Source: Escherichia coli
GTDB lineage: Bacteria; Pseudomonadota; Gammaproteobacteria; Enterobacterales; Enterobacteriaceae
Direction: 5' to 3' (one strand)
Length of the DNA stretch: 64,000 bases
NCBI RefSeq assembly: GCF_044324785.1
Contig: NZ_CP172127.1
Below the pieces are notes generated by a model that saw nothing but the letters and a program-made list of their open reading frames with translations, was not told the DNA's origin and ran no database searches. Of the stretch, positions 30,381-33,742 are shown piece by piece. A program made the translations under genes and the position numbers. Within the stretch, counting starts at the first letter, position 1. Every line of letters begins with the position of its first letter.

Positions 30381-31691
30381 CTAAATAAATTCAGCCCCAC
30401 TAGGAAAACGCAACTCTGATGTCTGTAAACTCTCGCCAATAAAGAAAGGTACAACCCATAAACGTAACCTATTTTCCTTCTGATGGCTAAATTCATAAGG
30501 ATGAGGAGATGGCTGATTAAATCCGTTATGATAGGGGTATATCAAAATCATATCACCTTCCCCCTCCTGGTAATTCAATCCATAGGCAAGCATTTGGTAG
30601 AGATCGGCTTGAGATTGTTCAAGACTGTCCTTTCTGCCATTTACTATCTTCCATTTAACATCACAGGTAATAACTGAACCAGTAGTACTTTTACGAGGCC
30701 GTAAACAAATATCAGGCCGCAGCTTAAATAAAGCTTTACCGTTATAACTAATCAGATTTTTTGAACTTACCTGTGCGTCCACTCGCCATTTATCATAATA
30801 ACGATAACGCATCCATGTCGTCACAAAAGATTCAAAAACAGCCTCCATCGGGAAAAGCAGTGAAAAAGCATTAACATCCCCATACATACAGTGTGGAGAA
30901 TCGCCCAATAAAATCATCTTCGCCCACGCTAATGCTTGCTCATAGTGATGCATGTGTCTATCAAAGTGTAACTGCTCGAAAGCTATATAAGCATCATGAA
31001 CTGACGTGATATTTTCAAAGTGAAACTGCAGCTGTGTTATCTGCTGTAATAATTGTGGATTACTGGTCTGGCGACTAATCTTATTAATTGCAGTTTTGAG
31101 TATCCGGTTTTCCAGACGATTGACGCTGTACTCGTCATACTCCACCTGAAAAAGATCCCGCCTAATACAGTTTTTGCTTAATTGTGCAGAGATCCGTAAT
31201 CTTCCTTTTATCCATGGAAGATTATCTTCCTGACGTAAATAGTCACGTTTTAACCCTCTCTGCACAATCTTACGCACGCTCTCTATAAATTGTTGAATAA
31301 AGATATCCATCAGAGGCATTTTAGATATTTTGACGCCAGATTCAGAGGAGGCAATATGACGAAATGATTTTAACGTACGTAACATCATCAGTAATTGTTG
31401 ACGAACAGTATCCTCATTATCCTGACCTGTTTTAGGCAGGATTTCGAGAAATCGCCCCCCTGGCAGTGAGATTACTCCTGCATAGTTTTTTACCTGCAGC
31501 GTTTTTACTCCATTCCGGCTGCTAAGGGTGAGCAAACGATGAGTATTATCAGCATCGTCTTTCAGACAGCGCAGCTCAAGCCATTTAAATAGGTCTGCAG
31601 GTAGCACTACCGCATTATTTATACGGGCATCACCTTCTTCACTCACTAAATGCCCGTATTCGAACACAGTGAAATGACTGGAAGATTTCAT
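30381..31691 (-). CDS. McrC-like nuclease subunit of a McrBC-type (type IV) restriction system
   Basis: 436 aa from ATG 31691, which overlaps the McrB-like stop in an ATGA junction; C-terminal PD-(x17)-DVK nuclease-like motif (RPDICLRP...ITCDVKWK). Confidence 0.75.
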   Translation of the reverse strand: MKSSSHFTVFEYGHLVSEEGDARINNAVVLPADLFKWLELRCLKDDADNTHRLLTLSSRNGVKTLQVKNYAGVISLPGGRFLEILPKTGQDNEDTVRQQLLMMLRTLKSFRHIASSESGVKISKMPLMDIFIQQFIESVRKIVQRGLKRDYLRQEDNLPWIKGRLRISAQLSKNCIRRDLFQVEYDEYSVNRLENRILKTAINKISRQTSNPQLLQQITQLQFHFENITSVHDAYIAFEQLHFDRHMHHYEQALAWAKMILLGDSPHCMYGDVNAFSLLFPMEAVFESFVTTWMRYRYYDKWRVDAQVSSKNLISYNGKALFKLRPDICLRPRKSTTGSVITCDVKWKIVNGRKDSLEQSQADLYQMLAYGLNYQEGEGDMILIYPYHNGFNQPSPHPYEFSHQKENRLRLWVVPFFIGESLQTSELRFPSGAEFI

Positions 31692-33742
31692 TCCGCACTC
31701 CTGCGTTTTTCTTTTTGAGGTGCATAAATTTGCTGCCAGGCGATTGGATTGTCCCAAACGTTGTCATCCTCTGCTGCCAGGTGAAAACTGGTTCCCAAGT
31801 CATCTGTTCCGTTATCACCAAAGAGATCGGCATACTTTTTCTGGTATTTCACCTCACGTACAAATTGAAGATCTGGTGCTTCCTCTTTTTGGTTATCAGC
31901 CAGTACCATGCGAATTTTTTGCCAGTCATTGTAAAAATATTCTTCCAGCAATGGTAGTATCTTATTTCGCATAATCCGTTTGAATCTTTCAAATGCCAGA
32001 GCTTCGTCTTCTTTTGCCTGCACAACAGGGATAAAAAAAGCATGCCCCAGCATATGTTCTCTATCGTATAAAACCTGGATGCGATCGTTAAGCGTCTGCA
32101 ATAGACGAGGCAGATCAATACCTTTAATGACAGTATCTTTCAGAACAGTAATATCTGGCAGCATCGCTTCAAAATCAAATCTGCGACGTAGTGCAGTATC
32201 AAGTGCAGTAAGCGAATGATCGGCAGTGTTCATGGTACCAATTAAATAAAGGTTATTCGGTACACTAAATGGAGTGGAAGAGTATGGCAGCAATACGCTA
32301 AGCGATTCTGGCTCACCAGCCCGTTTAGATGGCTCAATAAGAGTAATTAGTTCACCAAAAATTTTTGAAATATTACCCCGATTTATTTCATCAATAATGA
32401 GAACATAGTTTTCCTTTTTTTCTGAAGCTACGCTCTGAGTATTCAGAGGCAGATAACGTTGATTAATTAAATAGTTAAGGATACTGCGTACATAAGATGG
32501 ATTATGTACTTTTGCTCGTGGATCCTGATAAACTTGCCGAATATCCTTCAAATAGGCATTGTAACCCTGTCCTAAATCCTCTTTTTTCGATTGTGACGGG
32601 AAAATTCCAAAGTTGGTTTGACTTTTATACGTCAGCTGGAAGGCCTTACCCTGTTGTGTTTCCAGCGTGATATTTTCACCTTCAGATAAACGTTCTTGTA
32701 GGCGAGTAAGTGCGCTATCCAACATTTCCTGCGCACCAGCATGACCAAAGGCGGCATCCTCGCATATCTGTTTAAAAATACCTGCCTTTATTTCGTATTT
32801 TACATTACCGTCATCAGTAGTCTCAGCTCTTAAACCTTCAATAAACTCTTCATAACCAAAGCTCTGATGAAAGGTGATAAAACGCACTCGATTATCTTTG
32901 ATAAGCTGATCATAAATCTTTTTCAACTCGCGACGTTTTTCACTCTCATCCTTACCCTCCTGCAGGGAGTAAGCGATCGGATCACAAATTTGTACAGCAA
33001 GCTCAATAGTACGATATGTTTTACCTGTACCTGGCGGGCCATAGAGAATTGTGTTTTTAGGCAATGGCGAACTTATAATATCATCTTCTTGCTCATTTTC
33101 TTGTAAAGCACTTTCGCTTCCAACTAAACCGATAGCATTTTTATCCTGAATTTCATACGCATAGAGATGCCAAAGTGACATATTCAGCTCAATAGGGTCG
33201 ATATCATCACCCAGCGCACGATTTAGCGTTTCTTTAAGATCAACATTGCGAGCCAGCCACTCCCGTTCTCCGGAAAGACCTAGCTGGAAATGGTTGTTGC
33301 AATAATTGTAGCAACTAAAAAAATTATTAACATTCACGACACTGCTAATTTTTGATGGGTATATTGCTGCAAAAGCACGATTACAAAGAGCCCTATATAC
33401 CTTATTTAATACTCCGTCCGCTTTAAGTTTGATAAGGCGTTCAATGACCCGATTATAATTTTCTTGTGTACACTCTTCTGCTATCTGACGGGTGAGCGTT
33501 AGAAGGTCTTTTTGTGCATTTTCAAATTCAACCAATGACATCCCTCCTTGCATCAGGCTGGAGACACCATTGTCACGTTCATACCATACCTGCCGAATCG
33601 TGGCTTCAGAAAAGTTTGGTTTTTCGGCCTGAATCTGTTCTACAAGCTGGCGGTAGTGTTTGCCCCAAACTGAATTGTATTGATTATTTTTTTCAATTTG
33701 AGCACGAAAGAAGGGGGCTAATGCTGATGAATCCTGAACCAT
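31688..33742 (-). CDS. McrB-like AAA+ GTPase subunit with an extended N-terminal domain
   Basis: 684 aa; Walker A ILYGPPGTGKTY, LIIDEINRGN and the McrB signature LIGTMNTAD; ~230-aa N-terminal region not resembling the K-12 McrB DNA-binding domain; AT-rich. Confidence 0.8.
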   Translation of the reverse strand: MVQDSSALAPFFRAQIEKNNQYNSVWGKHYRQLVEQIQAEKPNFSEATIRQVWYERDNGVSSLMQGGMSLVEFENAQKDLLTLTRQIAEECTQENYNRVIERLIKLKADGVLNKVYRALCNRAFAAIYPSKISSVVNVNNFFSCYNYCNNHFQLGLSGEREWLARNVDLKETLNRALGDDIDPIELNMSLWHLYAYEIQDKNAIGLVGSESALQENEQEDDIISSPLPKNTILYGPPGTGKTYRTIELAVQICDPIAYSLQEGKDESEKRRELKKIYDQLIKDNRVRFITFHQSFGYEEFIEGLRAETTDDGNVKYEIKAGIFKQICEDAAFGHAGAQEMLDSALTRLQERLSEGENITLETQQGKAFQLTYKSQTNFGIFPSQSKKEDLGQGYNAYLKDIRQVYQDPRAKVHNPSYVRSILNYLINQRYLPLNTQSVASEKKENYVLIIDEINRGNISKIFGELITLIEPSKRAGEPESLSVLLPYSSTPFSVPNNLYLIGTMNTADHSLTALDTALRRRFDFEAMLPDITVLKDTVIKGIDLPRLLQTLNDRIQVLYDREHMLGHAFFIPVVQAKEDEALAFERFKRIMRNKILPLLEEYFYNDWQKIRMVLADNQKEEAPDLQFVREVKYQKKYADLFGDNGTDDLGTSFHLAAEDDNVWDNPIAWQQIYAPQKEKRRSAE

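Follow-up and report, generated by a model that had tools for sequence, protein, structure and literature searches.

McrBC is the textbook modification-dependent restriction system, and nearly all mechanistic knowledge of it comes from the Escherichia coli K-12 enzyme. In a survey of ~34,000 McrBC systems, the K-12 branch was linked with Type I restriction-modification (R-M) genes (Bell et al., 2024; PMC11090510). The END nucleases carry an inactive EndoIII/Ogg-like domain ('iEndoIII') that senses diverse hypermodified bases, and the same sensor is reported in fusions with a NucS-like PD-DExK nuclease and with a McrB-like GTPase, the McrB-like fusion being drawn in a figure only and not assayed (Yee et al., 2025, bioRxiv; PMC12191111). 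Here, an McrB/McrC gene pair was analyzed at positions 30,381 to 33,742 of a 64,000-nucleotide stretch of E. coli DNA (contig NZ_CP172127.1, assembly GCF_044324785.1), hereafter called the window. Target recognition by this pair would do without the 5-methylcytosine (5mC) reader of K-12 McrB and would rely instead on a ~200-aa module predicted to be all-alpha. We lean towards reading the pair as a GTP-driven McrBC nuclease in which the module would be the target sensor for modified or hypermodified DNA.

The McrB/McrC pair

The mcrB-like gene (31688..33742, minus strand) starts with ATG and encodes a protein of 684 aa, listed in RefSeq as WP_000249525.1, which consists in order of a helical module, an acidic linker and an AAA+ GTPase with an insert. 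The mcrC-like gene lies downstream on the same strand (30381..31691), and its 436-aa product matched the Pfam family McrBC (PF10117) over residues 87-408 with an E-value of 9e-100. Its start was taken as the ATG at 31691, the choice of RefSeq, the alternative given by the open reading frame (ORF) lister being a TTG at 31757. The stop of mcrB and the start of mcrC overlap in an ATGA at 31688..31691 (minus strand), read in the sequence as 'gcg gaA TGA aat' and corresponding to the 4-nt overlap in RefSeq.

Motif scans located the Walker A motif GPPGTGKT at residues 235-242 (33017..33040, minus strand), where it aligned with the Walker A of K-12 McrB and of Thermococcus gammatolerans McrB (TgMcrB). 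It was followed by FHQSFGYEEF at residue 291, the Walker B motif DEINR at residues 451-455 (32378..32392, minus strand) and then GN, the McrB signature NxxD within MNTAD at residues 504-508 (32219..32233, minus strand) preceded by LIGT, and RRRF at residue 519. In the McrC-like protein, RPD at residues 325-327 and DVK at 344-346 form the nuclease motif PD...DxK (D327...D344-V-K346; 30654..30713, minus strand), which was aligned by BLASTP with the catalytic region of K-12 McrC. An earlier note, made from the letters alone, had described an McrB-type AAA+ core with GPPGTGKT, DEINRGN and LIGTMNTAD, coupled through an ATGA overlap to a McrC-like PD-(D/E)xK protein, and each of these elements was recovered.

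Against PDB sequences, the best match of the McrB-like protein was T. gammatolerans McrB (6UT3; E = 1e-52), with EcoK McrB at 5e-30, while the McrC-like protein matched TgMcrC (4.7e-18) and EcMcrC (3.7e-6). These values are far beyond chance. Walker A, Walker B and NxxD are all present in an AAA+ domain of McrB type, the McrC has a DUF2357/McrBC domain and PD-(D/E)xK, and mcrB precedes mcrC, with all GTPase and PD-DxK nuclease motifs intact; judged from its sequence, the pair is a genuine and intact McrB/McrC system with translational coupling. Judging by the conserved motifs and by the solved complexes of T. gammatolerans and E. coli, to which the pair is homologous, McrB would be expected to form a GTP-hydrolysing AAA+ hexamer, the finger domain of McrC to insert into the McrB ring and stimulate the GTPase, and the DNA to be cut at the PD-DxK site of McrC.

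The pair is not an equivalog of the 5mC-specific EcoKMcrBC, because the McrB-like protein has no MrcB_N (PF12102) domain; it scored 117 bits with the NCBIfam model McrB (NF008457), far below the cutoff of 637 bits. BLASTP with K-12 McrB aligned query residues 227-330 with K-12 residues 193-266 and 435-606 with 263-444, leaving residues 1-226 and ~331-434 unaligned. This bears out the earlier observation that the N-terminus is unlike that of K-12 McrB. An origin in the CoCoNuT, or RNA-targeting, branch of McrBC was ruled out by NxxD (MNTAD), the intact DxK and the lack of a predicted long coiled coil. The NxxD form, as opposed to NxD, groups with canonical DNA-targeting McrBs (Bell et al., 2024), and the McrB-like protein is therefore placed with them. 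Family membership, together with the neighboring Type IV genes, points to a Type IV (modification-dependent) enzyme. No publication mentioning WP_000249525 or WP_001701898 was found.

The N-terminal module and the GTPase insert

The module, a putative glycosylase-fold (iEndoIII/Ogg-like) sensor, spans residues ~5-205 (33128..33730, minus strand) and is joined to the GTPase by an acidic, low-confidence linker at residues ~206-229 (33056..33127, minus strand; pLDDT 55-75, isoelectric point (pI) 4.05). The ~230-aa N-terminal domain of the earlier note thus stands as a region unrelated to K-12 McrB, with its folded part confined to residues ~5-205 and the remainder an acidic disordered linker. Neither the single sequence nor the profile of a 66-sequence alignment of the module matched anything in Pfam, NCBIfam, PADLOC, PHROGs or PDB sequences. 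None of the 66 members matched any Pfam family, and a word-indexed homologue search with the N-terminal query and its profile returned short fragments only. Within the alignment, W53, R122 and W162 were invariant and W26, Y30, N58, G66, L80, F124, P129, N187 and W191 nearly so. AlphaFold2 with this alignment predicted ten helices over residues 5-209 followed by the disordered acidic linker (pLDDT 92.6, pTM 0.86); the model from the single full-length sequence (pLDDT 33) was not used. The two approaches that the earlier note had put forward for the N-terminus, domain search and structure prediction, accordingly gave no library match and a confident all-helical model. The characterised McrB readers (DUF3578, YTH, EVE/PUA and B3) are beta-rich, so the module, all-alpha as modelled, is a different kind of domain.

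Structure comparison with 48,164 PDB chains yielded 46 top matches, eight of which came from one superfamily, far above chance expectation. Seven further HhH-GPD glycosylases in this comparison were matched over 122-149 aligned residues (Mig/TDG 1kea, MUTYH 8fay, MutY 5kn9 and 1rrq, MagIII 1pu6, EndoIII 2abk and 8a5g). Its remaining matches were short helical fragments or had a very large root mean square deviation. In a Foldseek search of PDB, MjaOgg (3knt), Tm1821 (3n0u) and SsoOgg (3fhg) took ranks 2-4 and 39, with TM-scores of 0.25-0.39. On the strength of the model, the module is probably glycosylase-like in fold. At residue 137, after the conserved stretch 'RVFAA..P...TT.V', a catalytic Asp would be expected; the query has Asn there, and 7 of the 66 members have Asp. 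An active glycosylase was rejected because this Asp equivalent is not conserved. If it has a glycosylase fold, the module would be catalytically inactive in this McrB; the missing HhH-GPD motif and Asp agree with an inactive derivative, without proving descent. Lacking a conserved catalytic Asp, the module would bind DNA and probe bases by flipping, with no excision.

When 1.84 billion representatives were searched exhaustively with HMMER, the module turned up in 127 protein clusters, where it precedes McrB GTPases, PD-(D/E)xK nucleases, HNH nucleases and a DUF262 protein. The 73 significant matches in AFDB50 were mostly McrB-like ATPases from Proteobacteria, Bacteroidota and others, and also included a DUF262 protein and several uncharacterised proteins of 360-525 aa. 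Full-length relatives with both Walker motifs numbered 69, and all were McrB-type GTPases; in 68 of them the distance from the end of the module to Walker A was 20-47 aa, and in ~26 the module stood at the very N-terminus, as it does here. Relatives such as P0034 and P0116 consist of the module and a GTPase that has no insert, and carry no extra reader. In the non-McrB set, 12 of 22 matches had a ~150-aa C-terminal domain with an 'AD...LYEIK' motif of PD-(D/E)xK type, and Pfam recognized HNH_2 (one), Mrr_N (one), DUF3427 (one) and MrcB_N (two), with weak matches to PDDEXK_9 and EVE. P0105 and P0110 are minimal proteins with the module, a nuclease-like domain and nothing else. The module is portable, and its combination with several restriction effectors, alone or beside known readers, is the behavior of a Type IV sensor domain, an adaptor role being also allowed by these data.

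In each relative locus examined (including L006-L009 and L012), mcrC directly followed mcrB. Type I R-M genes often adjoined the relatives, and one locus had yjiT/yjiV homologues as in the K-12 region. In three metagenomic loci around P0105 (L003-L005), a gene of the histone-deacetylase family (PF00850) consistently preceded the P0105-type module-nuclease gene and two unannotated genes encoding 480 and 577 aa followed it, a gene set that may be a conserved operon.

The GTPase large subdomain carries an insert of 118 aa at residues 326-443 (32414..32767, minus strand), which appeared as a gap in the alignments with K-12 and T. gammatolerans McrB and lies in the stretch from the GIFKQ helix to Walker B. 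The long insertion between Walker A and Walker B described earlier was thereby confirmed, the spacing being 216 aa here versus 78 aa in K-12; ~25 further extra residues are found between Walker A and the FHQS strand. An insert of comparable size occurred at the same site in 38 relatives. About 23 relatives had none there, and most of these still showed a Walker A-B spacing of ~205-215 aa, so these would have their insert earlier, in the stretch from Walker A to the FHQS strand; eight relatives lacked any large GTPase insert. On these alignments, the insert is a subfamily trait and not peculiar to this McrB. Its consensus is 'T..GK.F.V.Y.GG.TF...P...Y.ASI...R..Y......YN.SYV.GIL.YL', it is mildly basic (pI 8.0), and its alignment, used as a profile, had no match in PDB or PHROG. 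It is possibly an accessory DNA-contact or regulatory element. GTPase-domain inserts are frequent in McrBs, 'likely encoding specificity domains' (Bell et al., 2024).

A sensor role for the module is favored by the minimal module-nuclease proteins, the fold-level resemblance to glycosylases and the precedent of the END nucleases. Several results weigh against it. Foldseek of the model against PDB gave nothing significant (best E = 0.17), hhalign of the 66-sequence alignment with E. coli Nth (EndoIII) returned a probability of 0.1%, none of the 66 members matched PF00730 or PF21790, and sequence-profile searches left the module unlinked to EndoIII/Ogg. The module has a pI of 5.7 and a single invariant basic residue. 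Moreover, ~43 of the 69 relatives carry 100-510 extra residues upstream of it, and in two of them, P0095 (920 aa) and P0074 (1113 aa), the module is followed by a K-12-type MrcB_N domain and then by the AAA+ domain. In phmmer searches with the N-terminal domain of K-12 McrB, these two gave E-values of 4e-37 and 2e-24, respectively, with no match in the lineage of the McrB studied here. The module may not be the sole determinant of specificity, or any determinant. With ~60% of relatives bearing upstream domains and two sharing their chain with MrcB_N, the module is, from its domain arrangements, an add-on and not a simple swap for the reader. The earlier reading is partly supported, in that this region is unrelated in sequence to the K-12 reader and predicted to be all-alpha; that it sets which base is recognised here is a possibility. 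P0095 and P0074 may be multi-specificity McrBs. Their AAA+ domain matched the PADLOC candidate PDC-M26A. For the main family of upstream extensions, the label 'EVE' was not adopted, as its Pfam matches (1e-5, 1e-3 and 0.09, one each) came with no PDB profile match, making it a weak lead.

These points bear most directly on an alternative in which the module would be an adaptor, oligomerisation or regulatory domain, with DNA recognized by the basic 118-aa insert or another factor. The ~43 of 69 relatives with additional N-terminal domains, including the two with a bona fide MrcB_N reader, would fit such a role, as would the acidic module with few conserved basic residues beside an insert of pI 8.0 and the suggestion that GTPase inserts 'likely encode specificity domains' (Bell et al., 2024). 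This alternative seems unlikely to us, given that P0034 and P0116 combine the module and a GTPase with neither insert nor extra reader, that two-domain module-plus-nuclease proteins exist, that the repeated matches to glycosylase folds suggest a fold that binds DNA, and that the presence and position of the insert vary within the family.

If the module is the sensor, the analogous iEndoIII domain of END nucleases suggests that its likely targets would be phage bases with modifications or hypermodifications other than plain 5mC. It is plausible that the system reads something other than 5mC, and more specifically hypermodified bases. Cytosine modifications of the 5mC/5-hydroxymethylcytosine (5hmC) type could still be targeted as by K-12 McrBC, through convergent function of a different domain. 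The McrBC family is classically dependent on cytosine modification, and metagenomic McrBC-like inserts restrict T-even phages with modified C. We judge such convergence improbable, as the module has no similarity to the DUF3578, SRA or EVE folds, a duplicate specificity would be redundant where the module and MrcB_N coexist, and the END sensor precedents have hypermodified-base targets.

Distribution and genomic setting

In a survey of 5426 complete E. coli genomes, the pair was present in 315, always on the chromosome and with every match at least 99% identical, and its RefSeq annotation was merely 'McrB family protein / McrC family protein'. A sister cassette (WP_000177023.1 / WP_000504879.1, P0021-like), whose module is 37% identical, occurred in 1011 genomes. 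In the example from E. coli Res13-Lact-PEA14-20 (L013, 9001-12412), it occupies the nanS-side locus shared with the present variant, in the opposite orientation, beside a nanS remnant and a phosphorothioate (PT)-dependent endonuclease gene and with a different hsdM/S after it. Its GTPase insert would lie at another position, to go by the representative P0021. These arrangements are cassette-like allelic variation at one hotspot. The K-12-type mcrBC was found in 597 genomes, so that, in this set of complete genomes, module-bearing McrBCs are about twice as frequent as the canonical type, and the McrBCs most common in natural E. coli carry an uncharacterised putative sensor.

A broader proposal is that a dead, base-flipping glycosylase-fold sensor would let McrBC restrict hypermodified phages (with glucosylated hydroxymethylcytosine (glucosyl-hmC) or 7-deazaguanine derivatives) beyond the reach of K-12 McrBC, that this sensor type, counting the sister cassette, prevails in natural E. 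coli, and that tandems with MrcB_N or EVE-like domains are multi-specific; we hold this to be conceivable, with rather more doubt than confidence. If the module is an inactive glycosylase fold as in the END nucleases, the idea of a repair glycosylase turned modification sensor would reach a motor-driven nuclease. The reading would predict which therapeutic or model phages are resisted (T-even phages and the 7-deazaguanine phages of the BASEL set), and would offer a tractable E. coli system for learning how tandem readers set Type IV specificity. It would also have a practical bearing on the cloning and transformation of modified DNA in wild E. coli strains.

Decay of the pair into a non-functional remnant within a variable island is very improbable. 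The island is ridden with insertion sequences (IS) in some strains and the pair is partial in 30 of the 315 genomes, but both ORFs are full-length here with each catalytic motif intact, 285 genomes cover at least 80% of the pair, and all matches are at least 99% identical.

The window resembles an E. coli chromosome, with fimB, nanC, nanM, nanS, an HNH gene, a PT-DNA-binding endonuclease gene, mcrC, mcrB, a DUF4942 gene and hsdM/S/R in this order, and farther along CP4-like genes, a second Type I system and Dsr1. The PT-DNA-binding restriction endonuclease (29389-30318, plus strand; NF045808, 437 bits) is of the SBD-HNH type and convergent with mcrC across a gap of 62 nt; with this gene beside mcrBC, the locus stacks several modification-dependent nucleases. 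The neighboring HNH protein (28659-29309, minus strand; 216 aa) is intact and had weak PADLOC 'mREase_IV' matches in its N-terminal part. Strains 2014C-3307 and Res13-Lact-PEA14-20 have a 105-nt annotated remnant of this HNH gene and a truncated nanS. From a reading of these genes, the window carries a less decayed version of the island edge.

On the other side of mcrB, a candidate but weak sigma-70 promoter (33787..33816, minus strand; 9/12 consensus matches) lies ~45 nt upstream of the ATG, and sigma-70-like sites around mcrB were no more numerous in the consensus scan than in shuffles of the region. Between mcrB and hsdM, a 277-aa DUF4942 protein (34100-34933, minus strand) matched in its C-terminal part the phage 'DNA methyltransferase' phrog_6263 (1.8e-14), and no SAM-binding or NPPY-type motif was seen in it. 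It was discarded as a component of the system, being not conserved beside the relatives and separated from mcrB by IS3 in one strain.

The Type I genes raise the alternative of LlaJI-like recognition of an unmodified specific sequence, the host being protected by a neighboring methyltransferase such as the adjacent Type I HsdM. Type I R-M genes adjoin the pair here and in several relatives, and in LlaJI an McrB-type motor acts on unmodified sites. We nevertheless find this quite improbable. The Type I genes are divergent from mcrBC, and in 2014C-3307 IS3 and the DUF4942 gene intervene between them and mcrB; the relative at L006 has no methyltransferase nearby; Type I adjacency is typical also of the modification-dependent McrBCs of the K-12 branch (Bell et al., 2024); and the McrB-like protein has no B3-like domain.

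In hsdS (36793-37962), a perfect 12-nt tandem repeat, CTTACCGCTGAG x3.3, was observed at 37315-37354, where it encodes 13 residues in the central part of HsdS. The recognition-site spacer length of EcoR124-type (family IC) enzymes is set by the copy number of TAEL, and the specificity subunit HsdS may therefore vary here through repeat slippage. Farther along, the window contains CP4-type island remnants (41620-51574) with RadC (44680-45153), a YeeP-like GTPase (49752-50765) and several ORFs with no family match, a second Type I R-M system (hsdR, M, S; 52060-58349, plus strand) and a full-length Dsr1 sirtuin defence gene (59098-62889, minus strand; NF041818, 1670 bits). Defence genes are densely packed in the window, which forms a defence island. 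Rfam and tRNA scans around the locus were empty and no tRNA gene was detected within the window, although strain 2014C-3307 has the island between nanS and tRNA-Leu.

Comparison with known systems

E. coli K-12 McrBC is likewise a two-gene operon that begins with mcrB, lies in a cluster of restriction genes beside Type I R-M genes and, as far as the motifs indicate, has the GTPase and nuclease chemistry of the pair. It differs in that the McrB studied here has no DUF3578/MrcB_N, carries the 118-aa GTPase insert, and has an identity of 33-34% over the AAA+ core, with 22% for McrC. The locus also differs, lying on the nanS/leuX side here, whereas the K-12 mcrBC-hsd-mrr genes lie between yjiT and yjiA.

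The best-scoring solved relative of both subunits is T. gammatolerans McrBC (6UT3, 6UT5 and 6UT7). Common features are Walker A and B, NxxD, a FHQSxxYEEF strand, a longer McrC whose N-terminus holds a scaffold region, and additional residues from helix 2 to Walker B, although the unaligned segment before Walker B is ~115 aa here and ~64 aa in TgMcrB. TgMcrB has an N-terminal YTH-like reader specific for N6-methyladenine (6mA), in place of which an unrelated module, predicted to be all-alpha, is found here.

For the module itself, the nearest folds were the Ogg2-type 8-oxoguanine glycosylases (Tm1821 3N0U, MjaOgg 3KNT and SsoOgg 3FHG), with 9-13% identity and TM-scores below 0.4. In contrast to them, the module has no recognizable HhH-GPD motif, and the catalytic-Asp position is Asn here and variable in the family.

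The module was without a description in the McrBC survey (Bell et al., 2024). With the END sensor, it would share an inactive HhH-glycosylase-fold domain, as proposed for both, and fusion architectures with PD-DExK nucleases and McrB-like GTPases. For END-Mag, a tested PD-DExK fusion that restricts modified-guanine phages, the leading HHpred matches were 3FHG and M. jannaschii Ogg (Yee et al., 2025), and these archaeal Ogg structures were also among the top matches of the module. A comparison by cluster accessions gave no match between the module and END-Mag. Unlike the pair described here, the END enzymes characterised so far are PLD or PD-DExK nucleases made of one chain and lacking a GTPase motor; the pair is a variant that one preprint figure (Yee et al., 2025) appears to have partly anticipated. 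Since the architectures and structural neighbors coincide with those of Yee et al. (2025), the most economical reading would place this E. coli McrB in the iEndoIII-McrB class.

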